64,000 bases of DNA from an uncultured Pirellulales bacterium (GTDB lineage Bacteria; Planctomycetota; Phycisphaerae; Sedimentisphaerales; Anaerobacaceae). The stretch is taken from assembly GCA_964508925.1 (NCBI GenBank), contig CAZDVM010000008.1, positions 97,774 to 161,773 on the forward strand. The letters run 5' to 3'. The notes under the pieces were generated by a model. That model had not been told where the DNA came from and made no database searches. It worked only from the letters and a program-made list of their open reading frames with translations. Shown here one piece after another: positions 2,839-41,819 of this stretch. How positions within the stretch are numbered: position 1 is the stretch's first letter; every line of letters starts with the position of its first letter. Both the position numbers and the translations under genes were made by a program.

Positions 2839-2860
2839 AACAAGAAAATTAAAAAAGATT

Positions 2861-3144: not shown

Positions 3145-3915
3145 ATGCAGATAGCTACTTTTAATGTAAATTCACTGCGAGCACGAATCGGAATCGTGCG
3201 GGACTGGATCAAGGACAATAAGCCTGATGTGCTGTGCCTTCAGGAAACGAAGGTTCAGGATGATGAATTTCCGGAAGATGAATTCGACGGTTTCGAATAT
3301 AATTTCGTTTACCGGGGACAGAAGACTTACAACGGAGTTGCGATAATAAGCAGGCATGAGATAAATGATGTAGAGATGAGCCTGGATGAGGATCCGAAGG
3401 ATGAGGCAAGGCTGATAAAGGCAGCAGTTAATAATGTTGCGATAATAAATGCCTATGTACCACAGGGACAGTCGCGAGATTCTGATATGTTTCAATATAA
3501 ATTAGAATGGCTGGGGAATCTTAAGAAATTCATCGATAAGCGATTTAAGAAAAAAGACAAGGTTGTTCTAGTTGGGGATCTTAATATAGCTCCGGAGGAC
3601 AGAGACGTTTATGACCCGGAAATACTAGAGGGGCATGTCTGTTTTAATGAGGAAGTCAGTAAGATATTCGATGATCTGAAGGACTGGGGATTTGTGGACT
3701 GTTTCAGAAAGCATAATGAAAAGCACAGTCAGTTTTCTTTCTGGGATTATCGCGAGGGAAATGCGTTCAAGAAGAACCGCGGGTGGCGGCTTGATCATAT
3801 TCTTGCAACAAAGCCAATGGCGGACAAGTGTTCGAAGTGCTATATAGATAAGGGACAGAGGGAACTTAAAAAGCCGAGTGACCATACGCCCGTTATTGCG
3901 GAGTTCGATATATAA
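3145..3915 (+). CDS. xth: Exodeoxyribonuclease III
   Basis: MQIATFNVNSLRARIG...DVLCLQETK...SDHTPV: full ExoIII/APE1 family signature. Confidence 0.9.
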   Translation: MQIATFNVNSLRARIGIVRDWIKDNKPDVLCLQETKVQDDEFPEDEFDGFEYNFVYRGQKTYNGVAIISRHEINDVEMSLDEDPKDEARLIKAAVNNVAIINAYVPQGQSRDSDMFQYKLEWLGNLKKFIDKRFKKKDKVVLVGDLNIAPEDRDVYDPEILEGHVCFNEEVSKIFDDLKDWGFVDCFRKHNEKHSQFSFWDYREGNAFKKNRGWRLDHILATKPMADKCSKCYIDKGQRELKKPSDHTPVIAEFDI

Positions 3916-3939
3916 AATTTTAAATTCAGGGAAGATATT

Positions 3940-5277
3940 ATGTTTCAAAAAGTATTCGATTTTTTAAGGCACGGTATCTGGCGGTTGAGATTGAAGAATT
4001 ATCCGCCGGGAAAGTCATTTCTATTAAAACAGCTTCGAGTAATAGTGCTGTCGGTGAGAGGATTTGTAGAAGATCAGTGCAAGTTCCGAGCGTCTGCTTT
4101 AACATTCTTTTCGCTGCTTTCGATCGTGCCTGTATTGGCATTAATGTTCGGCATAGCAAAGGGATTCGGCCTTCAAAAAAGAGTAGAAAATGCAATACTT
4201 AATAATTTGCAAGACTTTGAAAATGTAGAAGGCTATGAAAAGATGGCCGAAAACATCATTTCCTTTTCAAATTCGCTGCTAGAACGAACAAGCGGCGGCC
4301 TTATTGCTGGTATCGGTGTGGTGTTTCTTTTCTGGACTATTATTAAGCTTTTAGGAAATATTGAAAATTCATTCAATAACATCTGGGGCGTTAAAAAACC
4401 CAGGCACCTTGGAAGAAAATTCAGTGACTATCTTTCAGTGATCCTTATCTGCCCGATACTTCTGGTGATATCCAGTAGTCTCAATGTAGCAATAACGACA
4501 CATGTAAAAGACTTTATTGCAAATTTCGATGTTCCGAATATTATTTCAGCCTTGATATTACTTTCATTGAGGCTGCTTCCGTTTATCACAATCTGGTTAA
4601 CCTTTTCGTTTGTATTTATTTTCATGCCAAATACAAAGGTCAAGCTTAAATCGGCCTTCGCATCTGCAGTGGTTTCGGGGACATTATTTGTTATAGCTCA
4701 GAAGCTTTATGTGATTTTCCAGGTAGGATCAGCCAAATACAGTGCTATTTACGGTAGCTTTGCAGCACTTCCTTTGTTTTTATTGTGGCTTCAGATAAGC
4801 TGGCTGATAGTTCTTTTCGGGGGGGAGTTGTCTTTTGCATATCAGAATGTTGACACTTACGAGTTCGAACAGGAGAGCCTCTCGATAAGTTATAAATTCA
4901 AGAAAAAGCTTTCGCTTCTGATAACGCATTTATTCGTAATGGATTTCTGCAATGAAAAGCCTGCGAAGACATCGTCAGAAATTACGCATCATTTTGAGAT
5001 CCCGATCAGGCTTGTACGGCAGATAGTTTTCGAACTTTGTGAATCAGGTATTCTTTCGGAAGTTAAAAAAGACGATGAGACTGACACGGCGTATCAGCCC
5101 GCGGTTTCAGTGAATAAGCTGACCATTAAATATGTTCTGGATGCCCTGGAAGGACATGGCAGTGCCGATATACCCATGGAAAAGACCGAGGTGCTTGAAA
5201 AACTGTCCGGCTGTCTAGAAGATATTTCCAAACAGATAGAGAAGTCGCCGGCTAATGTAAAATTAATGGACATCTGA
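3940..5277 (+). CDS. YihY/BrkB family membrane protein (RNase BN-like) with C-terminal extension
   Basis: 445 aa. Multi-TM core typical of the YihY family (FRASALTFFSLLSIVP) plus a soluble C-terminal ~110 aa domain. Confidence 0.65.
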   Translation: MFQKVFDFLRHGIWRLRLKNYPPGKSFLLKQLRVIVLSVRGFVEDQCKFRASALTFFSLLSIVPVLALMFGIAKGFGLQKRVENAILNNLQDFENVEGYEKMAENIISFSNSLLERTSGGLIAGIGVVFLFWTIIKLLGNIENSFNNIWGVKKPRHLGRKFSDYLSVILICPILLVISSSLNVAITTHVKDFIANFDVPNIISALILLSLRLLPFITIWLTFSFVFIFMPNTKVKLKSAFASAVVSGTLFVIAQKLYVIFQVGSAKYSAIYGSFAALPLFLLWLQISWLIVLFGGELSFAYQNVDTYEFEQESLSISYKFKKKLSLLITHLFVMDFCNEKPAKTSSEITHHFEIPIRLVRQIVFELCESGILSEVKKDDETDTAYQPAVSVNKLTIKYVLDALEGHGSADIPMEKTEVLEKLSGCLEDISKQIEKSPANVKLMDI

Positions 5278-5307
5278 TAATCAAATCCCAGGGATGTATA
5301 AAAAAAG

Positions 5308-5378
5308 CTGGGGCACAGGGATTTGAACCCCGACTAAATGATTCAGAGTCATTCGTGCTACCATTACACCATGCCCCA
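5308..5378 (-). tRNA. tRNA-Gln (anticodon CUG)
   Basis: Minus-strand sequence TGGGGCATGGTGTAATGGTAGCAC...AATGA-CTCTGAA-TCATT...CGGGG-TTCAAAT-CCCTG-TGCCCCA-G folds as a cloverleaf. 7-bp acceptor stem, TTCAAAT T-loop, anticodon loop CU-CUG-AA. CCA is not encoded. Confidence 0.85.
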
Positions 5379-5524
5379 GTAAATGAACATTTACCAGCAA
5401 AGAGTATAAAAGTTTAGTGATTTTGCAGAATTTTTCAAGTTATTTGGCATATTTTTCGGTTTATTTTTATTTATAAAATAAGGGTTAAGTTGACTTGAGA
5501 TGCTTTTGTTACTAATTTAATGCT

Positions 5525-6412
5525 ATGAGAAAAAGGATTTTTGAAATTTTATTTTTATTTTTTCTGGTCATACTGTTGGGTTGTGAAGGCCCTCCTGAAA
5601 GAAAAGTGCGGGAAAAGCCTGAATTGCAGGGGCTTACGGTACGGGACCTTGGTTCGCAGTATGATTTCAGAAAGGGTCGCTCAAAGAGCAGAAACATAAT
5701 AGAGATCAGCTTCGTGTGGCTCGAGATGCCGGCAGATAAAATCGGCAGTTTGATCGATATCACGAGACACCTTTCTAAAGAAAATATAGAATTGTTCAAT
5801 GAAGAAATCTTCTATGCCAATGATTTTGCAATTCATTTCGGACAGGTGGAACAATTCGAGGAAGTAGCGAATGCTCTTGCTGTTCAGGAGGCAAAAGAAA
5901 ATAAGATCACTAATATGGTAATAAATGAGCAGTTTTACAATGAGATCGAGCTGAAGAATTTCGAAAAAGAAAAGACGATATTTTATAATTCCGAATATGA
6001 ATCTCTGGAGGGAATAAGCCAGGAGGGTGGAAGTCTGGCGCTGCGTCTGAGGGTGAAAGTGTTAAAAGAACAGCGGGGGGCAGCTAAATTAAAAGCAGTG
6101 CCTGTATACCTGCCGGCAAAAAGCCGCCTGCCGGATATTTCAGGTATAGAGGAAAATAAGGAATATCCTTTTACGGATCTGGGTTTCAGTGCGGATATGG
6201 CGGTCGGTGACTTTGTTATGATGACACCGACTTCTCTGCACGATGATCAGGGCAGTTTGAACGGGATTTTCTTCTACAATCCTGAGTCGGATATCCTGCC
6301 GCCCAAGCCTGCAAAAGTTAAAAGCGGCGAAGAAGACAAACCAGGCGTGATAAGACTTACAAGTCAATCTTCGATCAATGTATTCATCATGTTTTTAAAA
6401 AGGATAGGCTAG
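5525..6412 (+). CDS. Hypothetical lipoprotein
   Basis: 295 aa. N-terminal signal peptide with lipobox LLGC. No recognisable catalytic motifs. Confidence 0.5.
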   Translation: MRKRIFEILFLFFLVILLGCEGPPERKVREKPELQGLTVRDLGSQYDFRKGRSKSRNIIEISFVWLEMPADKIGSLIDITRHLSKENIELFNEEIFYANDFAIHFGQVEQFEEVANALAVQEAKENKITNMVINEQFYNEIELKNFEKEKTIFYNSEYESLEGISQEGGSLALRLRVKVLKEQRGAAKLKAVPVYLPAKSRLPDISGIEENKEYPFTDLGFSADMAVGDFVMMTPTSLHDDQGSLNGIFFYNPESDILPPKPAKVKSGEEDKPGVIRLTSQSSINVFIMFLKRIG

Positions 6413-6415
6413 CGG

Positions 6416-7369
6416 ATGAATTTTTCCTGTGCTGTGGCAGAATGCAAAGATTACGAAAAGGAAAACGTAAAAGGTGCTTTGGAAAGGACTTTTTCACTTC
6501 TGGGGGGACTGGATAAATTTGTTGACAAAGGTGACAAGGTACTTATCAAACCCAATCTTATCGCTCCTAAGCCGGCTTCCATCCCGGCACAGACAAACGG
6601 AACCATGATCGTTGAGACGGCGAGAATTTTAAAGGAATTCGGAGCGAAGCCTTTTGTGGGTGATTCCCCTGCTTGGTCGAATATTTCTAACTGTTTAAAG
6701 AAGCTGGTTATTTATGATGAACTGGAAAGGATGGATGTGCCGGTCAAGGCATTTGTCAGGCCATATAAGAAGAGACTAAAGAATCCTTCCTGTAAGATCG
6801 GTTTCAGCACGGCTGCAAAGGAAGCGGACAAGATAATAAATCTGCCGAAATTGAAGGCACATCAGCAGCTTGGAGCGACGGTTGCGGTAAAGAATATGTT
6901 TGGGACAGTCACGGGAAAACAGAAGGCATACCTGCATTTTTCTATGGGCGGTAACAGGGCAAGATTCGCCAAGATGCTGATAAATATTTATGAAGAGATG
7001 AGGCCGGCACTGAATATTGTGGATGCGGTGGATGCAATGGAAGGACCGGGGCCTATCCGAGGCAATCCAAGGCGGCTTGGGTTGATCGTATCTTCGGAGC
7101 AGCCGATATGCTGTGAGCTGATATGCGCAAAAGTGATCAACCTGGATATCAATAAATTGTGTATCTTAAACGCTGCGAGAGAGCTTCATTACGGGCCGAA
7201 GCGACCGGAGGAAATCGAAATCCTCGGAGACGGATTCGAAGATAGAATATGCAGGAATTTTGTTTTGCCTGAGATCAAGCCGATCAAATTTTCCTTCGGA
7301 CATGTCTGCAGGAGTGTTTTTAGGCAGATAATGCTATTGATAAAGGCAGGCAGGAATTCGGATAATTGA
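6416..7369 (+). CDS. DUF362 domain-containing protein
   Basis: GDKVLIKPNL...GAKPFVGDSP pattern typical of DUF362. Starts 4 nt after the upstream lipoprotein gene, so likely co-transcribed. Confidence 0.7.
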   Translation: MNFSCAVAECKDYEKENVKGALERTFSLLGGLDKFVDKGDKVLIKPNLIAPKPASIPAQTNGTMIVETARILKEFGAKPFVGDSPAWSNISNCLKKLVIYDELERMDVPVKAFVRPYKKRLKNPSCKIGFSTAAKEADKIINLPKLKAHQQLGATVAVKNMFGTVTGKQKAYLHFSMGGNRARFAKMLINIYEEMRPALNIVDAVDAMEGPGPIRGNPRRLGLIVSSEQPICCELICAKVINLDINKLCILNAARELHYGPKRPEEIEILGDGFEDRICRNFVLPEIKPIKFSFGHVCRSVFRQIMLLIKAGRNSDN

Positions 7370-7394
7370 CACGGAAATGTTTTTGGGCTAATAT
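7366..7394 (+). promoter_or_regulatory. Sigma70-like promoter (TTGACA-17nt-TAATAT) directly upstream of tsaD, likely giving a leaderless or near-leaderless mRNA
   Basis: TTGACA at 7366-7371 and TAATAT at 7389-7394 with 17-nt spacing. The tsaD ATG at 7403 lies ~8 nt downstream of the -10 element. Confidence 0.5.
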
Positions 7395-7402
7395 TTTTGC
7401 TT

Positions 7403-8452
7403 ATGGAAATTGAAAATAAACAAGTGAATATACTGGGTATCGAGACTAGTTGTGATGAGACGGCGGCGGCGGTTATTACAGACGGCAAGATCATAAAATC
7501 CTCGGTAGTGGCCAGCCAGACCGAACTACATGAGAAGTACGGCGGGGTGGTGCCGGAGATCGCTTCCCGTGCGCATATTCAGAACATCTATCCGGTAGTA
7601 AAAGAAGCACTTGATCGGACAGGTATGGGCAAGGATGATATCGACGCAATCGCGATCGCAAACCGGCCCGGACTTACCATAGCCTTAATGGTAGGTGTCA
7701 CTGCAGCAAAAGCTCTCAGTTTTGCATGGGAAAAGCCGCTGATATCGATCAATCATATTCACGCACATCTGCAGTCGGCGATAATGGAAGAGGAAGAGAT
7801 CGAACTGCCGGCGGCAGGGCTTATAGTTTCCGGGGGGCATACGAGCTTATATGACTGTCACTCGATCTTAGAGCCTAGACTACTCGGTTCTACCATAGAC
7901 GATGCAGCAGGTGAGGCATTCGATAAGGTGGCGTCTATTTTGAAGCTGCCTTATCCCGGCGGGCCTAGTATCGAAAAAGCAGCCAAGGAGGGCAATCCGG
8001 AGGCGATCGATTTTCCAAGGACGCTGCTGGATAAGTTGTCCCTTGATTTTTCCTTTAGCGGGATCAAAACAGCTGTGCTTTATTACTGCAGGGGACAGGA
8101 TATGAAGGGTGAGAACCAGGTGGATAAAATGTCCAGGCAGCAGATAGCAGATATAGCTGCTTCGTTTCAGAAGGCGGTCGTTGATGTGTTGGTGATTAAG
8201 ACCAAGAGAGCTGTCGATAAGATAGATGCAAAAACAGTGCTGCTGGGAGGCGGAGTTGCGGCTAACAGTCTTTTAAGGGAAGAACTCGGGAAGTTTTGTG
8301 AAGAACACCGGCCTGAATTGAAACTTCTGATCGCACCGAAAAAATATTGCACGGATAACGCAGTTATGGTAGCCTCCCTTGCGTATTATAAGTATAAAGC
8401 GGGAATATTTGCCGATCTTTCTTTGGAACCGAAGGCGACGGCTGATGAATAA
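7403..8452 (+). CDS. tsaD: tRNA N6-adenosine threonylcarbamoyltransferase
   Basis: NILGIETSCDETAAAV...HIQ motif of Kae1/TsaD. The ORF track starts at a TTG at 7397, but the ATG at 7403 is more likely the true start. Confidence 0.9.
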   Translation: MEIENKQVNILGIETSCDETAAAVITDGKIIKSSVVASQTELHEKYGGVVPEIASRAHIQNIYPVVKEALDRTGMGKDDIDAIAIANRPGLTIALMVGVTAAKALSFAWEKPLISINHIHAHLQSAIMEEEEIELPAAGLIVSGGHTSLYDCHSILEPRLLGSTIDDAAGEAFDKVASILKLPYPGGPSIEKAAKEGNPEAIDFPRTLLDKLSLDFSFSGIKTAVLYYCRGQDMKGENQVDKMSRQQIADIAASFQKAVVDVLVIKTKRAVDKIDAKTVLLGGGVAANSLLREELGKFCEEHRPELKLLIAPKKYCTDNAVMVASLAYYKYKAGIFADLSLEPKATADE

Positions 8453-9314
8453 AGTCACTGAAATACCGAAATTACCGGAACGCAAAGCCAATTCACATAA
8501 GGGGACATACGGCAAGGTCTGCATGATAGCGGGTTCTTTCGGTATGAGCGGAGCGGCGGCGATAATGGCCAAATCCGCACTTCGCAGCGGAACGGGACTG
8601 TCCCGGGCGGCGGTACCTGAGAGCATTTTGCCGATCATAGCAGCTATTGAACCCTCATATACTATCACCCCCCTTCCGGAAGATAAACAGGGAAGAATAT
8701 CAAGAAAGGCGCTGCATACCATCCTCGATCTGCTCCCTCTTAATGACTGCATAGGAATGGGGCCGGGGCTTGGTAAAAGCAATGACCTGAAACTCATAAT
8801 CGAAAAAATAATCGGTCAGGAAGATTTGAAGCTGGTGCTGGATGCCGATGGTCTGAACAATCTTTCCGGGATCAAAGGCTGGCCCGGTAAGGTCAAGGCG
8901 GATATCATTCTCACACCTCATCCGGGTGAAATGAAGAGGATCTACAAATCGGTATTCAGGGAGGAAATGCCGGATGACAGGGTCGAGCAGGCGGCATGCC
9001 TGGCGGAAGAAACTAATACCACAGTGGTCTTAAAAGGAGCGGGGACGGTAGTTACTGACTGTAAGAAATATTATATCAATGATACAGGTAATTCAGGACT
9101 TGCAAGCGGGGGTACCGGCGACTGCCTGACAGGTATCATCACTTCTTTACGTGGACAGGGAATGTCTGCCTTTGAAGCAGCTCAGCTGGGGGTTTACATA
9201 CACGGGGTTGCAGGTGATATTGCAGCGGAAAAGCTGGGACAGATATCGATGATCGCTTCGGACGTAGTAGATTTTCTGCCGGAGGCTTTTAAACAATCGG
9301 CTCAAAATCAGTGA
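8445..9314 (+). CDS. nnrD: ADP-dependent NAD(P)H-hydrate dehydratase (YjeF C-terminal domain)
   Basis: HKGTYGKVCMIAGS...GGTGDCLTGII motifs of YjeF-C carbohydrate-kinase-like dehydratase. ATG overlaps the tsaD stop by 8 nt. Confidence 0.85.
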   Translation: MNKVTEIPKLPERKANSHKGTYGKVCMIAGSFGMSGAAAIMAKSALRSGTGLSRAAVPESILPIIAAIEPSYTITPLPEDKQGRISRKALHTILDLLPLNDCIGMGPGLGKSNDLKLIIEKIIGQEDLKLVLDADGLNNLSGIKGWPGKVKADIILTPHPGEMKRIYKSVFREEMPDDRVEQAACLAEETNTTVVLKGAGTVVTDCKKYYINDTGNSGLASGGTGDCLTGIITSLRGQGMSAFEAAQLGVYIHGVAGDIAAEKLGQISMIASDVVDFLPEAFKQSAQNQ

Positions 9315-10374: not shown

Positions 10375-10799
10375 AGGCTTTTCGGCATTTCATAATTTCA
10401 TTTTCGAAGATCTTTTGCGGGCAAGTCCTATATTATTCGCTTTAAAAGGCGTTGTATGAAGGGGTGGAAAATTTTCTTAAAATTTTTGAATTTTGTTCGG
10501 TTTTTGTTTGGGTTTTCCAGGTCGGTTTGCCGATAGAGTTATACACATTGCAAATGATAAAAAATGATCGGATGAAACCATGAAAAAAGAAGATAATAAA
10601 AAACCTTTATGTGTATTCGGGCCGGGCGGAGATTTCAATTCGATCCTCCGTTCAAGTGCTGAATTATCAGAAAATGAAAGCGGAGGACCGCTGGGTTCGG
10701 CTCTGGCTTTGATCAGGGATACTCTGAAGACTCTTTTGAGTCCGGACTCATATGAATATTCAGATGATGTAAGTGAAGTATTTAACGAAAAGGAAAAAA

Positions 10800-11426
10800 A
10801 TGTTAACACCACGTCAATTGGAATTGTTGAAAACGGTAAAAGATCTAACAGACAGCAACTGTTATTCCCCGTCAATAACAGAGCTGGCGACAGAAGCGGG
10901 AATAAGCCGAAGCACCGCATACGAACATATAAGCGAACTCAAAAACAAAAAAATGCTCACAGCTATCCCCGGCAAGGCTCGCTCTTTGAAAACAACTTCA
11001 AAGGCACTAAAACTGCTTGAGCAGTTAGATCGCCAACCGGAGGCAGAATCGAACGGATCGGGTATTCCGCTTTTGGGAAGGGTAGCGGCAGGTATGCCTA
11101 TTGAGGCGGTTGAAAACAGGGAATATTTGTCACTTGAGGATCAATTTGCCGTTTCCGATGATTCTTTCGCCTTAATGGTCAAAGGTAACAGTATGATCGG
11201 TGACAATATTTTTGACGGGGATTATGTGATCTGCAGGAGAACTGCCGCAGCCCGAAACGGAGAGCTTGTAGTTGCGATCATCGATAATGAAAATGCAACT
11301 CTGAAGAGATTTTTCAAGGAAAGTGACAGAATTCGGCTTCAGCCTTCCAATGAAGATTATGAACCGATCTATACGGACAACTGTCGGATCGAGGGTGTGG
11401 TTACCGGTTTGATGAGAAAATACTAG
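10800..11426 (+). CDS. lexA: LexA repressor
   Basis: LTPRQLELLK...ITELA...GISRSTAYEHI (LexA wHTH), then VAAGMPIEAVEN (Ala-Gly self-cleavage site) and GNSMIGDNI...GDYVICRR (S24 Ser/Lys). The ATG at 10800 has an AAGGA RBS. The ORF-track start at 10773 is a GTG. Confidence 0.9.
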   Translation: MLTPRQLELLKTVKDLTDSNCYSPSITELATEAGISRSTAYEHISELKNKKMLTAIPGKARSLKTTSKALKLLEQLDRQPEAESNGSGIPLLGRVAAGMPIEAVENREYLSLEDQFAVSDDSFALMVKGNSMIGDNIFDGDYVICRRTAAARNGELVVAIIDNENATLKRFFKESDRIRLQPSNEDYEPIYTDNCRIEGVVTGLMRKY

Positions 11427-14966: not shown

Positions 14967-15923
14967 ATGAGCAGTAATTCAGACCAGCAGATCATAGAAA
15001 GGGTGAAGATCCTGCGCGATAAATTTGCAGGGCCTCGAGGTAAAAGCAAGTTTGCCAAGGCGATTGGCATCAGCCCATCGACGTATAATTATTACGAAAA
15101 AGACCGGGTACCGCCTATTGAGACCCTGGTCAAAATGGCGGAACTGTCCGGTGCTGACCTGGTATGGCTTTTGACCGGCAAAAAAAACACAGAAAAACTT
15201 CAGCTGGGGCCTAACCAGGGATTGATAAAGAAGATCATCAGGCTGCTGGATGAAAACCAGGAGCTTGCGGGGCCTCTGGAAGCTTTTGTAGAACTTCTGG
15301 AAGCTCAACAGGAAATAGAGAATAAGGGTAAGTCAAAAAAAGTTAAGGATGATAAGGGCGGGGATAACTGGATCCCGGTGCTGGGAAGAACGGCAGCGGG
15401 GATTGCTTACAAGTGGAACGAAACTTTAAAACAACAAAGGCCCGATGTTACGGAACTTAAAGATATCGTTAAAGAACATACCGGAAAGGACATCTTAGAC
15501 AGCAGGGAGAAGAAAATCGAGATAGACCTGAAAGCCAGACCTTTGATGGAAAATCTTTCGGAGGGGGAAGTTAGCATTGTCAGGGTTACTGAAAATAACG
15601 GGGATGAACTGTTCGAATTCGTGGACAGTGAAAAAATAATCAGTATGTTCTCGGATGCGTTTGCATTGCATATTGACGGCGACAGCATGTCTCCGAAGAT
15701 AAATGACGGTAATATAGTGATAGTCAGTCCTTCAGTTAATGCTATCGAAGGCCAGACAGCAGTGGTAAAGATAAAGGATCAGATAGGAGTTACATGCAAA
15801 TTATTCCGTAAAGATGGGGGAAAAGTGCACCTGATCCCCGTCAATGAGAAATTCGATACTAAAGTATTCGATGAAAATGAACTTGAATGGGCCCTGGCAG
15901 TTTTGTGTCATGTCGATTTTTGA
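14967..15923 (+). CDS. LexA/CI-like self-cleaving repressor: XRE-family HTH fused to S24 peptidase
   Basis: 318 aa. N-term FAKAIGISPSTYNYYEKDRVPPIETLVKMAELSGADLVWLLTG (Cro/C1 HTH). LGRTAAGIAYKWNE (LexA-like Ala-Gly cleavage region). C-term GDSMSPKINDGNIVIV...KLFRKDGG (S24 Ser/Lys dyad). Confidence 0.85.
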   Translation: MSSNSDQQIIERVKILRDKFAGPRGKSKFAKAIGISPSTYNYYEKDRVPPIETLVKMAELSGADLVWLLTGKKNTEKLQLGPNQGLIKKIIRLLDENQELAGPLEAFVELLEAQQEIENKGKSKKVKDDKGGDNWIPVLGRTAAGIAYKWNETLKQQRPDVTELKDIVKEHTGKDILDSREKKIEIDLKARPLMENLSEGEVSIVRVTENNGDELFEFVDSEKIISMFSDAFALHIDGDSMSPKINDGNIVIVSPSVNAIEGQTAVVKIKDQIGVTCKLFRKDGGKVHLIPVNEKFDTKVFDENELEWALAVLCHVDF

Positions 15924-21452: not shown

Positions 21453-21536
21453 ACAATTTATAATGTGACAAGAAAAATAATAGAAAAAAGCGGGATATTG
21501 GATCCCGCCTTTGTCATTTCTATTTTCAAATTGTTA

Positions 21537-23999
21537 TTATTTTTTATTTTCGGAGCAGAATTTTCCCATCAGCATCATTGGTTCGTTCATCTTTTCGGGC
21601 GAACCGTCGTTCTTTGCGAATGCATCTACAAGCTTAACCAGTTCGGGGTCGGCTTCCTTGTAGCCGTATTTGTGCGAGGTATTTACTATACCTGCATCAA
21701 GGCCGTATTCGCGGGCCTTTTTGACGTAGGCTCTGCATATACCGATCTTTCTTGCCGGCAGGTCCCTGCAGCAATTGCTGATACCGAGAGAAAAGTGAAC
21801 ATCCTTCATATCGGGATCGTTTTTGATCTTTTTGATGGTTTCAAACGCCCTGTATGTAAAGCTGGGAGTACCGGGTTCCATGGGCATATCGATAGCCAGC
21901 GGGAATACCGTAGTATCGAAGAAAATTTCTTCGGGTTTAAAACCATATTTGTTTACAGCTGCATCGAAAATGGTCTTGGCGACTTCGTAAAGATCATCGA
22001 TAGTGTGCATACCTTTGGGACCTGAACCCTGACTTTCGGTGACCAGTAGTCCTATGAAGGAGTAATCATAATGTTTCTTGAGCGGCATCAGTTCATCGAT
22101 GTTGTGATCTTTTATGGAGTTTATCAAAGGCTGTTTTACTTCTTCGTCTGTATTGTACCATTCTTTCAGGCCTGCAATGAGAACTTCGTTGTTGCTGCTG
22201 TCAATGCAGATCGGAACACCTTCGCCCCATTTTCTAACCATCTTCACGTATTCCTTCATCATATCGACTGCAAGCTGCGGGTCCTCTTCGCCGAATGAAT
22301 CCAGGTTAACAGCGATGTAATCTGCCCCGTCGTCAGCCTGTGACTGTATCAGTGCCTTGATGTAATCCAGCTGATCGGATGGTTTTTTATAGGCATCGGG
22401 CCCCATTTGCTGGAGTTCCTTCATTATCTTGCCTGTTTTTGGAATCGATGCGTGAACAGATTCGCCAATATAAATGATCGGATTTTTCATAGTATGATCC
22501 TTCCCGAAAATATAATTTAACATTGAAGACGTATTTTCCAGTTCAGGGTTTCGCGGCTGATTAATTCTTTTTCTCAAAGTTTCCAGCCCGTTCTTTTCTG
22601 AAGCTGCCGCCTTGTAAATATATTCGCCGATGCATATCCGGTCAAGATTATTTCCGCACATGCCTTCAACGGTGGCATCGCCGCAGGGTGCATTGTCCAT
22701 TCCTTTTTCGCATCCGCCTATGGTGCACCAGCTGAAGTTTTCCGGCAAAAAGCAGTCGCCGCATTCTTCGCAATCGAAAAGCAGATACTTCGATACCTTT
22801 TCGAAACAGAAAAATGATTTATAGGCAAATCCTTCGCCCTTTTCTGCGCCAAGGGTTTTCATCACCTTATTAAATGCGTGAAAGCCTTTGTAGTCCGGGT
22901 CAAGGATGCTTCTGTGCATGAGCTTGAACATGGCGTGATTCAGTTTTTTCCTGTGTTTTGAAAGTTGATTCTGTTTTCCGTTCTCATCGTAAAGGTAGTA
23001 AGATTCTTCGGCGGGCCAGTACAGGTTATCTTTGTATTTTTCCCAGTCCTGGCCGATCTCGGCAGCTCTTTTTACTATTTTCTGAAAGGTTTTAAAGTTG
23101 TGCACTCCACCGATATCGGCACCGGCAGCTCCCATTGTCTTGTACATTGCCACCTGCTGAGCAGCTCTTTCGATATTTTCCTCTTTGCTTTCCGAATATA
23201 CTTTCTCAAGCAGATCGTCGCTTACGAAACAACCGGGCAGTTCAATATCGTGCATGAGTTTTGCAGCCTTGTTGGAATTGCTGAGCATGTAAACATTGCC
23301 GATGACCGGGACATCGATTTCGTTATCCTGCATGTATTGGAAAAGTTCTTTTGATTTTTTCCAGTCCCAGCCGACCTGGGTGATAAGAAATTCTGCCCCC
23401 GTTTTAATTTTCTTTTCCATTTTAAAATACTGCTGCAGCAGAGATGGTTCGGTGTATTTGAAAGGCGAAACGGCAGCGCCGGTATAAAACCTGTGAACGG
23501 AGTCAAGTGAGTCCGGTTTTGCCTTTGTAAGGGCCTTGTTGTTCATCTGCCTTATCATTCTCAGCAATCCTATTGCATCCAGTTCGAAAACACCCTTGGA
23601 GCTTATGGGTTTGTCTCCGGTTAAAACCAGGATATTATCGATGCCTGCTTTCTGGTAGCCGATGATCAAGCTTTTCAGGCCGTCTTCATTATGATCTTTA
23701 CAGCTTATGTGAGGAACAAAATGCAGACCGTCGAGCAGACCGTTTTTGTCCACATATCTTAGAACGTCTGCCGGGTCGAGATTTGCCACTCCACCTGGAT
23801 TTTGGGGAAATGTTATTGAGCAGAAATTGAAATCTTCGGGTACCCAGTCGTCTCCTTCTTCTCTGTAGCCTTCGAGGAATTTTTTGATAGGATTGAGCTT
23901 ATAGCCGAAGCCTGCTGTCAATTCCACATTTATCACAAAATTCGAATTGTCTTCAAGTTTTTCTTTAAACGTCATTTCAGTCATTACAAAACTCTCCAT
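21537..23999 (-). CDS. Fusion protein: methylenetetrahydrofolate reductase (MetF-like) + Zn-ribbon MetV-like segment + methyl-THF pterin-binding methyltransferase domain (MetH/AcsE/MtrH-like)
   Basis: 820 aa. N-term MTHFR fold (FVINVELTAGF...HFVPHISCKDHNEDGL...ILVLTGDKP). Middle Cys-rich CEECGDCF...CTIGGCEKGMDNAPCGD. C-term IAVNLDSFG...VPICIDSSNNEVLIAGLK...GISNCC...GLDAGIVN parallels the MetH pterin-binding barrel (IDSS motif). The second ATG at 23984 has a better RBS (GGAGAG). Confidence 0.75.
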   Translation of the reverse strand: MESFVMTEMTFKEKLEDNSNFVINVELTAGFGYKLNPIKKFLEGYREEGDDWVPEDFNFCSITFPQNPGGVANLDPADVLRYVDKNGLLDGLHFVPHISCKDHNEDGLKSLIIGYQKAGIDNILVLTGDKPISSKGVFELDAIGLLRMIRQMNNKALTKAKPDSLDSVHRFYTGAAVSPFKYTEPSLLQQYFKMEKKIKTGAEFLITQVGWDWKKSKELFQYMQDNEIDVPVIGNVYMLSNSNKAAKLMHDIELPGCFVSDDLLEKVYSESKEENIERAAQQVAMYKTMGAAGADIGGVHNFKTFQKIVKRAAEIGQDWEKYKDNLYWPAEESYYLYDENGKQNQLSKHRKKLNHAMFKLMHRSILDPDYKGFHAFNKVMKTLGAEKGEGFAYKSFFCFEKVSKYLLFDCEECGDCFLPENFSWCTIGGCEKGMDNAPCGDATVEGMCGNNLDRICIGEYIYKAAASEKNGLETLRKRINQPRNPELENTSSMLNYIFGKDHTMKNPIIYIGESVHASIPKTGKIMKELQQMGPDAYKKPSDQLDYIKALIQSQADDGADYIAVNLDSFGEEDPQLAVDMMKEYVKMVRKWGEGVPICIDSSNNEVLIAGLKEWYNTDEEVKQPLINSIKDHNIDELMPLKKHYDYSFIGLLVTESQGSGPKGMHTIDDLYEVAKTIFDAAVNKYGFKPEEIFFDTTVFPLAIDMPMEPGTPSFTYRAFETIKKIKNDPDMKDVHFSLGISNCCRDLPARKIGICRAYVKKAREYGLDAGIVNTSHKYGYKEADPELVKLVDAFAKNDGSPEKMNEPMMLMGKFCSENKK

Positions 24000-24510
24000 T
24001 AATGCCGGATTTTTAACATTTCAACCGATCATTTTGTTCTCCAAAACAACATATTTGCCGTTTTCAGTAATAAAACGGACATTGAAATTTGTTATAAAGA
24101 TTTTTATTTAAAATTTATAGGGTCTTTACAGCTATTTTTTATAATAATCTGGCTATATGGGATATAGGGAAAATTTTGATATGTTAATTTTCTGTTATTG
24201 TGGATAACTTGTTGAAAACTCTGATTTTTTCCACAGGCAAATGTTAATAAAATATTAATGTCACGTTAATTGTAAATTAAGCCTCATTGAATATATTAAC
24301 GGCCCGCATACTCTACTTAGTTTAACACCCCTTAAACCTTTATTATATAAGTACTTAAAACTTTTTTAACAAATAGAACCAGATAGTGTTTGTTAAAATT
24401 GTCAATTTTACTTAGGTTGCCTATTTTAACATATGGTATATCTAGAGGAAAAGATACCATAATAGAAAGACGTGGATAAGTGTTTGAATTAAGAAAATTT
24501 TTCAATTTTT

Positions 24511-25572
24511 TTATATTTTTTGCTCATCGAAGAACTGATCGAGCTTTTTTTTGAAATTTTTACAGGCCTCGATGGGGTCAGGAGCCTTAGTAATTGCAGA
24601 ACAAACGGCAACCGCATCCGCTCCTGCACTGAGTACTTTTTCCAGATTATCAAGGTTAATACCGCCAATGGCAACAACTTTTGGAGCTTCATTTTTTAGC
24701 CTTGCTGATGCTTTTTTAATGTAGTCAAGTCCGGCAATTTCGGGGATCTCTTTTGTTTCACTTTCAAAAACCGGGCCTGCTGCTACATAAGAGGGGTTTT
24801 GAGCAAGGGCTATTTCCAGCTGATTCATATTGTGAGTGCTTTTTCCTATGATCATGGGCCCCTGCTGGAGTTTTCTTGCATCTTCTATGGAAATATCATG
24901 CTGGCCCAAGTGGACGCCGTCAGCTGAACTGGCTATCGCTATATCAACCCTGTCATTTACTATGCATATCACCCCCATATCCCTGCAGAATTCAGAAACC
25001 TGCCTGCATACAGCCACCAGCTGGTCGTCGGCCGTATTCTTGCACCTTATCTGAATGCAGTCAACTTCTCCGATAGCACAGCATCTTGCCATGGAAATTA
25101 TGTCCAAGGGATTGTCGCTTGATATCAAAACGTAAAGTTTAACATTTTTGAATTTATTAATGCAGTCACCCTGCAGTGCTGCATCCTTTTCAAGAGCATA
25201 GGACCTGTATCTTAAATCTTCAAAGGAAGCGGCGATCTCAGGGTCAATTGATTGCGTGGTTTCGGCAAGGACTCTCATGGCTTCTGAAAATCTTTTGCAG
25301 GCAGCGGTGAAACTGTCATTGATATCTTTTCTGGAAAGCTGGCCTTTGACCTGTTTGCCTATCCCGACATCTCCTTCGGTATCTCTGTTTGCAAGGAGTC
25401 TGGACTGCTGGAATTTTGAAATTTCAGTGCATAACTCGTGCCTCAACTGTTTTATCCTAGCTGTCAAAAACTCGGAGTTGAGGTAAAATCTGCAGAATTC
25501 TTCCATCACTCTGGCGGCTTCTCTGGCCCGATTGAAATTAGCATCAATTATCCTGTAAATGCTGTTGTCCAT
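24511..25572 (-). CDS. thiE: Thiamine-phosphate synthase with ~150-aa N-terminal extra domain
   Basis: C-terminal 200 aa: KLYVLISSD...GVHLGQHD...VAIGGINLDNLEKVLSAGADAVAV, as in ThiE. N-terminal RIIDANFNRAREAARVMEE-type extension. Confidence 0.8.
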   Translation of the reverse strand: MDNSIYRIIDANFNRAREAARVMEEFCRFYLNSEFLTARIKQLRHELCTEISKFQQSRLLANRDTEGDVGIGKQVKGQLSRKDINDSFTAACKRFSEAMRVLAETTQSIDPEIAASFEDLRYRSYALEKDAALQGDCINKFKNVKLYVLISSDNPLDIISMARCCAIGEVDCIQIRCKNTADDQLVAVCRQVSEFCRDMGVICIVNDRVDIAIASSADGVHLGQHDISIEDARKLQQGPMIIGKSTHNMNQLEIALAQNPSYVAAGPVFESETKEIPEIAGLDYIKKASARLKNEAPKVVAIGGINLDNLEKVLSAGADAVAVCSAITKAPDPIEACKNFKKKLDQFFDEQKI

Positions 25573-35364: not shown

Positions 35365-36597
35365 TTATTTTACTTCGACAACCGAATTGTATTCGCCGAA
35401 GGGGTTTACTTCTTTTGTTTCGTTGTATGGGTCCTGCTGCCATTTGCCGTCAACTACTATCCTGTAGCGGTGCTTTCCTTTAGGTATTTTCACCTTAGCC
35501 TGCCAGATTCCGCTTTCGCCGACTTTCTTCATGGGGGTTTTTTCGGGCTGCCAGCCGTTGAAGTCACCTGCGATCTGAACTTTTTCAGCCCGCGGGTACA
35601 AACTTACGAATGCCACGGCATCTTTCATGCAGGTGACGCCGTAATAATCGGAAAGCTTTTCATCCAGCGAACTTTTCTGTTCTGTTTTTTCCTGCTGTTT
35701 TGTCGCAGTTGCGGTTTGCTGTTTGGTTTTATTTTCCGGCTGAACTTTGCTGATAATCTCATCAGCGGTCATACTTATCTTTGTCAGCCTGTCATCCATT
35801 TGATTGACTTTTTCGTCCCTGCTGTCGATAACCTGTGAATTCAGTAATTCTTCTGCAAGGGAATTGAAATCCATTCTTCCCCTGCTGCCGGGGTCGTATT
35901 CGCAGATGGGCTGGCCGAAACTGCTTGCTTCCTTGATCTTGGTGTTGAAATTGATAACCGTAGTGAACATCTTATCGGTAAAGTGATTTCTCAGTTCTGC
36001 GAGAATTTCTCTTGCCATTTTGGTTCTTACATCATACATGCTGGCAAGTACTTGGACGTTTACGTCCTGGTTGGATCTTTCGGTAATGATATTCAAGGTC
36101 TCAAGCTGTTTGCTCAAACCATGCAGAGCAAAATAGCCGGTTTCCACCGGAACGATAACTTCCGAAGATGCCTTCAATGCGTTGAAGGTCAAAAGGCTTA
36201 CAGCCGGGGGACAGTCTATAACGACATAGTCGTATTTATCGCGTACTTTTTCGAGTTCTTCCTTTAAGGTGTATTCCCTTCCGACAACGCCGCTCATCTG
36301 CTGTTCGAATGCAGACAGATCGATACTGCTGGGGGCCAATTCGAGATTATCGGTTATCTGCCAGAGAATTTCTGACAATTCGGTTTTTTCGTTTCGGCTT
36401 TTGCTGATCATAACATCGTAAATGCTCTGATCGATCTGGTCTTCGGGCACTGCCAGACCAACGGCGCAATGTGATTGCGGGTCCATATCGACAAGCAGTG
36501 TTTTCTGGCCTAGTTCTGCAAGTGCACTTGCCAGGTTAATTGAAACGGTGGTTTTTCCGCAACCACCCTTTTGGTTAATGACTGCGATCGTTCTCAT
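35365..36597 (-). CDS. ParA/MinD-family ATPase fused to C-terminal CBM48 (AMPK-beta-like glycogen-binding) domain
   Basis: 410 aa. N-term MRTIAVINQKGGCGKTT (deviant Walker A) ...LLVDMDPQ... full ParA core to ~aa 250. Low-complexity Q/T/K linker. C-term ...VQIAGDFNGWQPEKTPMKKVGESGIWQAKVKIPKGKHRYRIVVDGKWQQDPYNE matches the CBM48/AMPK1_CBM consensus (GSFNNW...G.H.YKF.VDG.W..DP). Confidence 0.8.
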   Translation of the reverse strand: MRTIAVINQKGGCGKTTVSINLASALAELGQKTLLVDMDPQSHCAVGLAVPEDQIDQSIYDVMISKSRNEKTELSEILWQITDNLELAPSSIDLSAFEQQMSGVVGREYTLKEELEKVRDKYDYVVIDCPPAVSLLTFNALKASSEVIVPVETGYFALHGLSKQLETLNIITERSNQDVNVQVLASMYDVRTKMAREILAELRNHFTDKMFTTVINFNTKIKEASSFGQPICEYDPGSRGRMDFNSLAEELLNSQVIDSRDEKVNQMDDRLTKISMTADEIISKVQPENKTKQQTATATKQQEKTEQKSSLDEKLSDYYGVTCMKDAVAFVSLYPRAEKVQIAGDFNGWQPEKTPMKKVGESGIWQAKVKIPKGKHRYRIVVDGKWQQDPYNETKEVNPFGEYNSVVEVK

Positions 36598-39057: not shown

Positions 39058-40368
39058 ATGATAAAAGTGCTTAAAGACAAAAAAATGAAAGTTAAAGAAG
39101 CTATTTCCATTGATAAAGATATTTTCAAATGGGAAGACTGGAGATGGCAGCTGAAACATTCTATCAAAAGCATCGAGACATTCGAGGAGCTGCTTGGTAT
39201 CCAGTTCAGGGAAGACATACGTGAAGAGATCGAAAAGACCGTGGAGAAGTTCCCTTTAAGCATTACTCCGTACTACCTTTCATTAATAGATACAGACGAT
39301 ATTAAGAACGATCCTATATTCAAACAGGCCTTCCCTTCCCCTCATGAAATGGACGATCACAAATGTGACATGTCCGACCCGCTTGCAGAAGATAAGGACA
39401 GCCCGGTGGAAGGGATCACTCACAGGTATCCTGACAGGGTGCTTTTCCTTGTAAGTAATGTCTGTTCAATGTACTGCAGACACTGTACTAGAAAAAGAAG
39501 GGTTGGCGACGTCGATTTCGTGCCGGACAAGAAAACTATCTTAAAAGGGATCAAATACATAAAGGATCATCCGGAGGTACGTGACGTGCTGCTTTCGGGC
39601 GGAGATCCGTTTTTGCTATCAAATGAATACCTGGACTGGATTTTGAGCGAACTTGCAGAGATCGAACATCTGGAGGTTATAAGGATCGGCACGAGAACGC
39701 CGGTAGTTCTGCCTCAGAGGATAACGGATGAACTGGTGGATGTTCTCAGGAAATACCAGCCGATCTGGATAAATACACATTTCAACCATCCCAGGGAAAT
39801 AACTAAATCCTCCAGAAAAGCCGTAAAAAAACTTGCAGATGCAGGTATCCCGCTGGGTAATCAGTCGGTACTTCTTGCGGGTGTCAACGACTGCCCGCGG
39901 ATAATGAAGGCCCTGGTACATAAGCTTGTCGAAAACAGGATCAGGCCTTACTATCTGTATCAGTGTGACCTTTCAGAGGGATTGACGCATTTCAGAACGC
40001 CCGTCGGAAAAGGTATCGAAATAATAGAAAATCTCATCGGCCATACTTCCGGATTTTGCGTCCCCAGATATGTAATAGATGCTCCGGGCGGAGGCGGAAA
40101 AATTCCGGTAATGCCGAATTACCTGATATCATGGTCAACGAATAAAGTTGTACTGAGGAATTACGAAGGTGTCATTACCACCTATAAAGAGCCTGATTCG
40201 TATGAGCCTATCTTCTGCGACAGGAAATGCGGCGACTGCAAACTGCAATTAAAAACAGATGACGCCGAAGAGCAAAAGGCCACGGGTATCTGTAAACTTC
40301 TCAACGATTACGATAAGGATATATCACTGACGCCTTCGGAAAATGAACGTCACTCAAGAAGGAAATAG
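39058..40368 (+). CDS. ablA: L-lysine 2,3-aminomutase (radical SAM, KamA/AblA)
   Basis: [12 protein letters not shown] (CX3CX2C radical-SAM cluster of the KamA family). Whole-length KamA similarity ([27 protein letters not shown]). Confidence 0.85.
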
Positions 40369-40370
40369 TT

Positions 40371-41819
40371 ATGGCTGTAATTGACTATATCCTCTTCGGT
40401 CTGTATATGGCAGGTGTCCTCGGGATCGGATACTACCATTTCCTGAGAAACGAGGACAGGGAAGATTATTACGTCGGCAGCAGATCCATCAAGGCTCACC
40501 ACGTAGGTTTATCCATAGTCGCCACCGACGTAGGGGGCGGCTTTTCCATAGGTCTGGGCGGACTTGGGTTCGTGATGGGACTTGCGGGAAGTTGGCTTTT
40601 GTTTACCGGCCTTATAGGTGCCTGGCTGACTGCCGTGATAGTAATACCGAGGATCAAGAAATTCGACAGAAAACATAAGATGTTCACCTATCCGGATTTT
40701 TTAAGGTTCAGATATAATGAGAAAGTGGCCCTTGCAGCTGCCCTGATATCCGGGCTGGGATATATGGGATTTACAGGAGCACAGGTTCTGGCAGGTGCCA
40801 AACTGGCATCGGCTACCCTGATAACCAAGGCTCCTTTCGGTCTTACTCCCCTTGAATTTTCCATCTATATAATCGCCTGTATAACTCTTGTTTACACAGT
40901 GATCGGGGGTTTGAAGGCGGTCATATATACTGATACCGCACAATGGGCGATTCTTTTAACCGGTCTGATATTTGTTACTATACCGGTGACTCTTTTTAAA
41001 CTGGGAGGTATCTCCAGACTGAAAGAGGCACTGCCTTCGAATTACTTTGACCTGACCAACATAACCGCAACCCAGTTTATAAACTGGATGGTGACTATTA
41101 TACCTATCTGGCTGATAGGAATGACACTTTACCAGCGAATGTACGCCTGCAAGAACGAAGAGGAGGCCAAAAAGGCCTGGTACATCGCCGGTCTGTTCGA
41201 GTACCCGGTAATGGCTTTCACCGGCGTTTTTCTTGGGATGTGTGCAAAGGTGCTTATCCCGGAGGCGGAGTCGGAAATGGCAATGCCCATGCTGATATCA
41301 CGGATGCTGCCCATAGGAGTGACGGGGATTGTTATCGCATCTTATTTTTCGGCTATAATGTCAACCGCAGACAGTTGCCTTATGGCATCATCGGGCAACC
41401 TGGTCAACGACGTACTTCACAGGTATATATTCAAGAACAATTCTGACAAGCAGCTGATGTTCTTATCACAGATAGTAACACTTATCATCGGCATAGTCGC
41501 CATCGTGATCGCAAGTGAATTTAAAAAGGTGCTCGATGCCATATTATATGCCTACGCCTTCATGGTTTCAGGGTTGTTCATACCGACACTGGGTGCATAT
41601 CTGTGGAAAAAGGCGAGCTCGACCGGGGCTTTATTGAGCATGATAGCTGGTGGAAGTCTGACATTGACCCTGCAGATAAAGCCCGAACTCCTGCCGGAAA
41701 AATTAAGTAAGACAGGTTTAGATGCCACGGTCTACGGCATTTTGATCTCACTGATCATATTTATAAGTTGTTCCTATATATTTCCCGATAAAGAAAAGAC
41801 GAATCATTATGACATTTGA
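40371..41819 (+). CDS. Sodium:solute symporter family (SSF) transporter
   Basis: 482 aa, ~13 TM helices. SSF-like N-terminal Y..GR...........GG motif region. Inserted between ablA and ablB. Confidence 0.75.

Follow-up and report, generated by a model that had tools for sequence, protein, structure and literature searches.

A predicted single-chain fusion of MTHFR, a MetV-like module and a pterin-binding methyltransferase in anaerobic Planctomycetota, with a candidate corrinoid protein partner

We analysed a stretch of 64,000 nucleotides from an uncultured planctomycete of the order Sedimentisphaerales (contig CAZDVM010000008.1 of assembly GCA_964508925.1; hereafter the window), in which a single gene on the minus strand appears to encode a methylenetetrahydrofolate reductase (MTHFR, MetF), a MetV-like Cys-rich module and a pterin-binding methyltransferase acting on methyl-tetrahydrofolate (methyl-THF) in one polypeptide. 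In the list of open reading frames (ORFs) of the 64-kb window, the frame runs uninterrupted over 820 codons at 21537..23999. An earlier note made from the letters of this DNA had described a three-domain polypeptide of 820 aa; the single intact ORF bears out the first part of this description, whereas the length is probably 815 aa. Specifically, the second in-frame ATG, at 23984, is probably the true start, because a Shine-Dalgarno-like GGAGAG lies 7 nt upstream of it, the database protein P0001, which is identical to the window fusion, has 815 aa, and the N-termini of homologs align there in the family alignment. Residue numbers of the fusion sites follow the 815-aa numbering. The gene and its parts are the following.

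21537..23984, minus strand: whole fusion gene, 815 aa from the probable ATG at 23984, with an upstream in-frame ATG at 23999 and the stop codon at 21537-21539
23010..23984, minus strand: MTHFR (MetF) TIM-barrel module, about residues 1-325, assigned by Pfam PF02219, invariant columns and predicted fold
22830..23009, minus strand: helical linker, about residues 326-385, conserved in the family, without a Pfam match, with predicted helices at 348-360 and 366-377
22500..22829, minus strand: MetV-like Cys-rich module (PF12225/DUF5981), about residues 386-495, assigned by Pfam and eight invariant Cys
21540..22490, minus strand: methyl-THF pterin-binding methyltransferase module (MetH-Fol/AcsE/MT-II type), residues 499-815, assigned by Pfam, site residues and fold
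21486..21512, minus strand: terminator-like hairpin of 11 bp (5 GC) followed by a T-run, directly after the stop codon

Upstream of the gene lie about 510 nt of AT-rich non-coding DNA. Given this long spacer and the terminator-like hairpin, the fusion gene appears to be monocistronic.

Pfam assigns three domains to the protein, all above their gathering scores, and both sequence profiles and the predicted fold uphold the three-part reading of the earlier note, MTHFR plus MetV-like segment plus pterin-binding domain. The motifs named there (CEECGDCF, CTIGGC, CGD, ICIDSS, GISNCC and GIVN) are all present in the ORF translation, with every Cys, Asp and Asn in them invariant across 26 fused homologs that are 62-68% identical to the window protein. 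None of the curated NCBIfam models is passed by the fusion; these models recognise the same three parts below their cutoffs. An AlphaFold2 model computed on the family alignment has a mean predicted local distance difference test score (pLDDT) of 78 and a whole-chain predicted template-modelling score (pTM) of 0.80, and its low-confidence parts are mostly limited to predicted cofactor and substrate loops.

The N-terminal module matches PF02219 over residues 91-300 (64.3 bits against a cutoff of 24). Across the 26 family members, E21, H92, D124 (in LTGD) and Q203 (in ITQ) are invariant or nearly so; in particular, D124 and Q203 are invariant and E21 nearly so. E21, D124 and Q203 are also invariant relative to four separate MetF-type sequences, where they align with the catalytic Glu, Asp and Gln, and they correspond to E28, D120 and Q183 of E. 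coli MetF. The model of the N-terminal barrel matches the MTHFR structures 1v93 (T. thermophilus) and 1b5t (E. coli) in Foldseek with a template-modelling (TM) score of 0.74, E. coli MTHFR is also among the PDB sequence matches of the fusion, and the predicted structure of the MetF module has the β8α8 barrel fold, with a putative flavin site. On the other hand, the module reaches only 71 bits against a cutoff of 294 with the NAD(P)H-MetF equivalogs of NCBIfam and 104 bits against 453 with the YitJ model NF006396, a match confined to the MTHFR part. Its identity is 24-26% to MetF of the MetVF type versus 21% to canonical MetF. Judged by its sequence, the fusion is not a canonical MetF equivalog.

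The middle module matches PF12225 (DUF5981/MTHFR_C, the MetV domain) over residues 396-482 (42.8 bits against a cutoff of 23). Its eight Cys residues, C405, C408, C411, C420, C425, C434, C443 and C451, are invariant in the 26 homologs, and all eight align with Cys residues of separate MetV proteins and of a permuted fusion described below. Only the C-terminal, eight-Cys half of MetV is kept: the alignment shows no counterpart in the fusion of the N-terminal half of about 100 aa that is present in the MetV proteins of loci L096 and L158. No solved structure found by Foldseek covers the Cys module. Biochemistry has assigned to MetV two [4Fe-4S] clusters and also zinc; MetVF purified from C. ljungdahlii contains FMN, and its Fe/S content is consistent with a pair of [4Fe-4S] clusters in the MetV subunit; the enzyme makes no use of NAD(P)H, while reduced ferredoxin serves it as electron donor in vitro (PMC8760232). 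Because of this published biochemistry, we read the module as a site of electron entry rather than only as a Zn ribbon, and it is predicted to bind two [4Fe-4S] clusters. Of the "MetV-like Zn-ribbon" in the earlier note, the likeness to MetV stands and the Zn ribbon alone does not.

The C-terminal module matches PF00809 (Pterin_bind) over residues 545-742 (40.9 bits against a cutoff of 25.5). The pterin-site residues are E508 (in IGE), D595 (DSS), N622 (NS), D690 (FFD), N737 (SN) and R740/R745, of which E508, D595, N622, D690 and N737 are invariant or nearly so in the 26 fused members, while the Asp of DSS, the Asn of NS, the Asp of FFD and the Asn of SN are invariant in stand-alone pterin proteins too. 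The latter four, D595, N622, D690 and N737, align to the DS, NS, D and SN motifs of the methyltransferase MeTr (2yci), in which the pterin-site residues are D75, N96, D160 and N199. MeTr 2yci is among the PDB sequence matches (1.7e-9), as are MetH folate domains. In Foldseek, the C-terminal barrel model gives TM scores of 0.79 to the MetH folate domain 5von, 0.75 to AcsE 2e7f and 0.74 to the O-demethylase methyltransferase II (MT-II) 4o1e. The curated models are again reached only partially, with about 90-93 bits against a cutoff of 259 for PRK07535 (MeTr), 43 against 370 for another MeTr/AcsE model and 68 against 1011 for the MetH model TIGR02082. The earlier note had set its pterin-binding assignment against a homocysteine S-methyltransferase of the YitJ type. 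The pterin-binding assignment holds and the homocysteine alternative fails, because PF02574 gives no match and, among the curated models, MeTr/AcsE and the MetH folate domain come closest. By its domain content, the fusion is neither a YitJ, as it has no homocysteine barrel, nor a MetH, as it has no homocysteine (Hcy) or B12 domains.

The fusion belongs to a large family. A word-indexed protein search, with listed matches of 799-840 aa, returned at least 120 homologs of this length with the same three Pfam domains among the matches listed. They come from Planctomycetota, Phycisphaerae and Sedimentisphaerales metagenome-assembled genomes (MAGs) and are named only "5,10-methylenetetrahydrofolate reductase", "methylenetetrahydrofolate reductase (NADPH)" or "MTHFR C-terminal domain-containing protein". 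A relative is encoded in 322 GTDB species representatives. The best 80 of these, which are the basis of the neighbour counts given below, are 60-68% identical and belong to Phycisphaerae, Sedimentisphaerales, Anaerohalosphaeraceae or generic Planctomycetota MAGs. Because the architecture recurs at this identity in the 80 best loci and in many metagenome contigs, it is far beyond chance. An exhaustive search of 50%-identity cluster representatives gave 1975 matches, among which full-length three-domain clusters, the most distant at 33% identity, are only a handful; for many others, of about 520 aa, the match is confined to residues 5-500 of the fusion (MetF plus MetV), and for proteins of about 310 aa to residues 499-815. 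Our full-text literature searches found no paper describing the fusion. The earlier note had named a known, widely annotated family as a ground for rejection; the family is indeed widespread, but it carries generic names only. It is, in short, a widespread but unstudied family of anaerobic Planctomycetes (Sedimentisphaerales).

Split and rearranged relatives break the protein at the same place. P0125 (499 aa) ends exactly at the module boundary, and P0130, P0134, P0140, P0144 and P0148 (304-320 aa) begin with Met at the boundary of the pterin module. In a metagenome scan, the pterin gene was fused at 33 loci and stood alone at 49. Relative to the window module, the median identity of the stand-alone proteins is 67.5%, versus 66.6% for fused orthologs, and many of the stand-alone genes share the synteny of the fusion. 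Fused and stand-alone states are interleaved on a neighbour-joining tree, on which the count of fused/split changes is an upper bound, some contigs being cut. The contigs of P0163, P0129 and P0147 were too short and were left out of the context reading. The following arrangements, in which the locus labels serve to tell the contigs apart, were verified with Pfam; percentages are identities to the pterin module unless stated otherwise.

L111 (70.7%): pterin gene preceded, after a gap of 4 nt, by the gene for a B12-binding_2+B12-binding corrinoid protein
L096 (70.7%): pterin gene divergent from a cluster of fhs, folD, NiFe hydrogenase (small subunit, large subunit, HycI), metV, metF and a corrinoid protein gene
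L110, L112 and L141 (68%): a canonical 291-aa MetF gene overlaps the start of the pterin gene
L158 (67.8%): metV, metF and pterin genes adjacent
L092 and L095 (45-48%): pterin gene directly upstream of a homocysteine S-methyltransferase gene
L087 (P0142; 33% over the whole protein): permuted Pterin-MTHFR-MetV fusion, whose operon also encodes a corrinoid protein, DUF1638, a RACo/AcsV-like activator and a URO-D-family methyltransferase
P0154 (585 aa, metagenomic; 41%): degenerate MTHFR-like N-terminus joined straight to the pterin module, without the MetV Cys-rich domain

The homocysteine methyltransferase gene of L092 encodes a YitJ-type Hcy methyltransferase/MTHFR that passes the NF006396 cutoff (592 versus 453), while the ORF in L095 runs off the contig end. 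In L096, the cluster at 2-7624 (minus strand) faces the pterin gene at 7980-8966 (plus strand), and, with a hydrogenase placed between folD and metVF, it may encode a methylene-THF reductase that is linked to H2 and supplies a small corrinoid protein. Stand-alone pterin genes also have fused EtfB-EtfA genes (698-744 aa) beside them in L111 (4789-6882, minus strand) and L142 (5344-7578, minus strand), and L111 further contains a gene for an ETF-QO/FixCX-like oxidoreductase (2163-3833, minus strand). These EtfB-EtfA and ETF-QO/FixCX-like proteins, seen at two loci only, are possible electron-transfer partners. Taken together, the fused and split forms are interchangeable, and the pterin methyltransferase is repeatedly and independently linked to MetF, MetV and a small corrinoid protein.

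L111 and L096 encode corrinoid proteins that share 83% identity. Both belong to a family of 208 aa that is 85-92% identical across at least 120 listed 90%-identity clusters (P0393-P0512), and some entries in it carry the name "corrinoid protein [Sedimentisphaerales bacterium]" or "[Planctomycetota bacterium]". Two of the genes lie as follows.

L111, 7257-7886: corrinoid protein gene
L175, 10001-10627: corrinoid protein gene

The family is thus present in Sedimentisphaerales MAGs, adjoins the stand-alone pterin gene in L111 and is part of the cluster in L096. In a Sedimentisphaerales MAG, the corrinoid gene stands alone amid unrelated genes, with neither a partner nor a riboswitch, and without the upstream motif seen at the fusion gene (see below). 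The nearest curated models are those for "methyltransferase cognate corrinoid protein" (MtgC, MtbC, TIGR02370), at about 190 bits and below their cutoffs. Between species, fusions of the same lineage are only 62-70% identical, versus the 85-92% of the corrinoid protein; this stronger conservation fits a hub protein with several partners. The methyl acceptor, which the earlier note had to leave blank, can now be narrowed through gene linkage in orthologous split forms to this separate, conserved 208-aa protein of MtgC/MetH type.

The neighbours of the fusion gene are of a different kind. In the window and its relatives they comprise a ThiD2+TMP-TENI gene upstream, small membrane proteins, smpB, DUF1844, trpC, ispG, sulfatases and glycoside hydrolases. 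In the window, as the earlier note had it, a thiE-type gene lies on the upstream side, and two small membrane proteins lie downstream.

24511-25572, minus strand: ThiD2 + TMP-TENI gene (thiamine-phosphate synthase type), the most conserved neighbour of the fusion gene

By neighbour clustering, the ThiE-like gene is found in 36 of the 80 loci, upstream, always on the same strand and about 540 nt away, and looks like synteny without an obvious functional link. Less frequent neighbours are trpC (21/80), GlnRS (19/80), smpB (17/80) and, both of them minor, a convergent FolP gene (7/80) and CobA/BtuR (6/80). The FolP gene encodes a dihydropteroate synthase (DHPS; 286 bits) as a separate, convergent gene within about 10 nt of the fusion stop, in L055 (2730-3584, minus strand) and six other loci. 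Four long contigs of relatives show housekeeping synteny only. In all 80 loci, the fusion is a single, apparently monocistronic gene amid housekeeping genes, which indicates that its partner is unlinked. In line with this, the absence of B12- or homocysteine-binding domains alongside the gene, as stated in the earlier note, was confirmed by Pfam among 48 window ORFs (covering all those of at least 150 aa except six internally overlapping ones), which include no RACo/RamA gene either. Local phmmer searches found nothing consistent near fused loci for corrinoid, RACo, URO-D, DUF1638 or Hcy proteins. A single weak URO-D match occurs in L009, and a "RACo-like" match in L075 was rejected, as it is a Fer2-FNR-type reductase. 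Riboswitches were looked for in the window and 11 related loci; no match to an Rfam family attained the gathering score, and a permissive scan gave nothing credible.

The non-coding DNA between the fusion gene and the ThiE-like gene contains a conserved element and further boxes.

24197..24220, minus strand: AGTTTTCAACAAGTTATCCACAAT, a conserved non-coding element upstream of the gene, made up of two DnaA-like boxes in tandem and including a perfect TTATCCACA
24227-24235, plus strand: further DnaA-like box
24471-24479, minus strand: further DnaA-like box

The element of the window contains TTATCAACAGGTTATCCACAA. In many fused and stand-alone orthologs (L003-L174), a sequence with the consensus GTT(T/A)TCAACA(G/A)GTTATCCACAA precedes the start codon by about 140-260 nt, and a second recurrent motif, (C/T)GTAAGT(C/A)TTTG, occurs near it. 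Fused and stand-alone orthologs have 1.8-2.1 boxes per 600 nt of upstream sequence versus a background of 0.157, an 11-13-fold enrichment. We considered a replication origin (oriC) for this cluster and rejected it, given that the window has no GC-skew switch, an origin-like pattern occurs in only 9 of 48 loci and the ThiE-like gene, where there is one, lies on the same strand. Because of the missing skew switch and the few origin-like loci, an operator or promoter is more likely than an origin, and the element is a possible operator or promoter of the fusion gene.

Elsewhere in the window, genes for a lysine-2,3-aminomutase (Radical_SAM+LAM_C), an SSF-family sodium:solute symporter and a GNAT acetyltransferase stand in a row at 39058-42648 (plus strand); this looks like an ablA/ablB N-epsilon-acetyl-beta-lysine osmolyte cluster with an inserted transporter and suggests a halophilic lifestyle. 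A gene at 35365-36597 (minus strand) shows an unusual pairing of a ParA/MinD-type P-loop ATPase (AAA_31/CbiA) with a C-terminal CBM48/AMPK glycogen-binding module. Two LexA/S24-peptidase repressor-like genes, at 10773-11426 and 14967-15923 (both plus strand), lie less than 5 kb apart, the latter with an HTH_3/phage-CI-like N-terminus. Finally, the 748-aa ORF at 59941-62187 (minus strand) has no Pfam match at E<1e-4.

We propose, with a modest preference over the alternatives below, that the fusion, a separate corrinoid protein and a homocysteine protein together act as a split methionine synthase that carries its own MTHFR. By homology, low-potential electrons from ferredoxin or another donor would enter through the two [4Fe-4S] clusters of the MetV-like module, and the flavin of the MetF barrel, once reduced, would convert 5,10-methylene-THF into 5-methyl-THF. 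The C-terminal barrel of MetH-Fol/AcsE type, as its site residues and fold suggest, would bind methyl-THF and offer the N5-methyl group to the Co(I) of a corrinoid. This corrinoid would be carried by the separate 208-aa B12-binding_2+B12-binding protein of MtgC/MetH type encoded elsewhere, as the gene linkage in split forms indicates. In the weakest step of this scheme, the methyl-corrinoid protein would most likely donate to homocysteine through a separate Zn-dependent homocysteine methyltransferase, with methionine as the most likely final product. The making and the use of methyl-THF would thereby be held on one polypeptide, and the substrate may be physically channelled between them. Since the methyl-transfer steps to the corrinoid are chemically reversible, this set of proteins could operate in the opposite direction as well.

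Homocysteine is favoured as the acceptor because of the single-gene housekeeping character of the fusion, the linkage of a distant homolog to YitJ and the precedent of roseobacters, in which MtgD (pterin), MtgC (corrinoid) and MtgE (Hcy) form a split methionine synthase and mtgD adjoins a metF paralog (PMC12478193). Several observations weigh against this proposal. No corrinoid, homocysteine-binding or activator gene lies in the window or within 10 kb of the fusion in the 80 loci, and neither the fusion gene nor the corrinoid protein gene has a SAM or B12 riboswitch upstream. The YitJ linkage concerns only the distant pterin homolog (45-48%). The corrinoid protein scores about 190 bits with catabolic MtgC/MtbC-type models and only 143 with the MetH B12 region. 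Additionally, the co-occurrence of fusion and corrinoid protein holds at the level of the lineage only, and canonical MetH, MetE or a second MetF may coexist with them. Stand-alone PF02574 proteins were found in Planctomycetota MAGs with the Hcy domain of L092 as query, and they are not tied to fusion-bearing genomes.

The alternative that survives best is the same chemistry run in reverse for catabolism, which we nevertheless regard as unlikely. Here, a methyltransferase I (MT-I) would load methyl groups from methoxylated or methylated compounds or quaternary amines onto the corrinoid protein, the pterin module would act as MT-II and pass them to THF, and MetF-MetV would oxidise methyl-THF to methylene-THF, ending in one-carbon (C1) oxidation or assimilation. 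The permuted fusion of L087 does lie in a classic operon of this kind, with an MT-I of the URO-D family, a corrinoid protein, the RACo activator and DUF1638, but it is only 33% identical to the window protein, and no MT-I gene of the URO-D or MttB type recurs near the fusion in the 80 genomic and 33 metagenomic fused loci, the weak match in L009 apart. The corrinoid protein most resembles cognate corrinoid proteins of the MtgC/MtbC type, and the C-terminal fold also matches the Desulfitobacterium O-demethylase MT-II 4o1e; the fusion itself, however, is a single gene in a housekeeping context, conserved across an order of sugar fermenters. Roseobacter MtgD is bidirectional, with the adjacent MetF2 proposed to oxidise methyl-THF (PMC12478193), and the clustering of fhs, folD and hydrogenase genes with those for MetVF and the corrinoid protein in L096 could provide a way to formate and H2. 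The catabolic direction, however, would have to carry electrons from methyl-THF (E0' about -200 mV) by way of Fe-S clusters to ferredoxin or H2, which is energetically uphill, as is generally known and as discussed for MetVF (PMC8760232).

A role in the Wood-Ljungdahl pathway is less probable still. The pterin module, as an AcsE-type enzyme, would then methylate the corrinoid iron-sulfur protein (CFeSP) for acetyl-CoA synthase, with MetF-MetV as the preceding step. It is true that methyl-THF:corrinoid/iron-sulfur protein methyltransferase is among the closest matches in curated models and PDB sequences (PRK07535, 90 bits; 2yci, 1.7e-9), yet all MeTr/AcsE models stay far below their cutoffs (90 versus 259 and 43 versus 370). 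MetVF-type reductases are typical of acetogens (PMC8760232), and L096 bears an fhs-folD-metVF cluster; the linked corrinoid protein, on the other hand, is the small B12-binding_2+B12-binding protein rather than CFeSP, and no carbon monoxide dehydrogenase/acetyl-CoA synthase (CODH/ACS) or CFeSP gene is found among the annotated neighbourhoods. One metagenomic study has assigned putative Wood-Ljungdahl pathways to Sedimentisphaerales MAGs (PMC13335318), but such calls may partly rest on the fusion gene itself.

We consider it very improbable that the C-terminal barrel is not a corrinoid methyltransferase at all and instead has a non-catalytic folate-binding or regulatory role, or works with free cobalamin or on a different pterin. 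In favour of this, the module stays under the cutoff of every specific curated model, the fused loci of the lineage of the window have no linked partner, and it is general knowledge that MetH fragments without the B12 domain can use free cobalamin. However, the residues that bind and activate methyl-THF are invariant in the 26 fused proteins, the last four of them in the stand-alone ones as well, orthologs are directly linked to a corrinoid protein gene, and the genuine DHPS is a separate gene beside the fusion in the seven FolP loci. A mis-assembly or read-through of neighbouring metF, metV and pterin genes, for which the occurrence of split versions might speak, is effectively refuted, because the uninterrupted ORF recurs in many independent NCBI, JGI, ENA and Logan assemblies with conserved linkers, and the whole-chain model has a pTM of 0.80.

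The split methionine synthase with its own MTHFR, which we prefer, can be extended into a broader and far more tentative picture, one that we think unlikely to hold in full. In it, throughout this order of anaerobic Planctomycetes, an MTHFR-methyltransferase fusion driven by Fe-S/ferredoxin or hydrogenase, together with the 208-aa corrinoid hub, would replace canonical MetF and MetH; the hub would serve both methionine synthesis and the THF-linked use of environmental methyl groups, and the DnaA-box-like operator may tie methyl supply to the replication cycle. If so, these polysaccharide degraders would have an unsuspected B12-dependent C1 metabolism. With its split and permuted forms, the fusion acts as a "Rosetta stone": it joins four parts known singly, MetF, MetV, a small corrinoid protein and a methyltransferase of MetH-Fol/AcsE type, in a single pathway of a lineage that is environmentally abundant and little studied. 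Should the split methionine synthase model be true, it would explain how these anaerobes without an obvious MetH make methionine or handle methyl groups, and it would correct pathway-gap and "Wood-Ljungdahl" calls in MAGs that count the fusion as metF or acsE. It would also allow the electron-donor problem of MetVF-type reductases to be studied in a soluble protein of one chain, and would offer a tractable system for the hand-off of methyl-THF between two active sites. The model predicts that Sedimentisphaerales depend on B12.

The fusion resembles several known systems in part. Like the type II MetVF of acetogens (C. ljungdahlii; PMC8760232), it has a MetF barrel without canonical-MetF motifs and an eight-Cys MetV whose Cys residues all align; unlike it, the fusion is one chain, MetF then MetV, with only half of MetV and a third catalytic module, and comes from a Planctomycete. 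The MtgD/MtgC/MtgE and MetF2 system of roseobacters and Phaeobacter inhibens (PMC12478193; PMC7311316) likewise has separate corrinoid and Hcy proteins, a pterin protein linked to a metF paralog and bidirectional function, but its genes are neighbouring rather than fused, have no MetV, belong to aerobic Alphaproteobacteria and are distant in sequence. YitJ (NF006396), whose gene adjoins the pterin homolog in L092, similarly joins MTHFR to one of the two N-terminal barrels of MetH; in YitJ this is the homocysteine barrel (PF02574), without MetV, whereas in the fusion it is the folate barrel (PF00809). MetH itself unites Hcy, Fol, B12-cap and B12 (and activation) domains in one chain, of which the fusion has the Fol-type barrel only. 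Finally, the folate barrels of MetH, AcsE/MeTr and MT-II (5von, 2e7f/2yci and 4o1e) share with the C-terminal module the TIM fold (TM 0.74-0.79) and the methyl-THF residues, but they are part of MetH or free-standing, are about 20% identical to the barrel of the fusion, and none is joined to an MTHFR.

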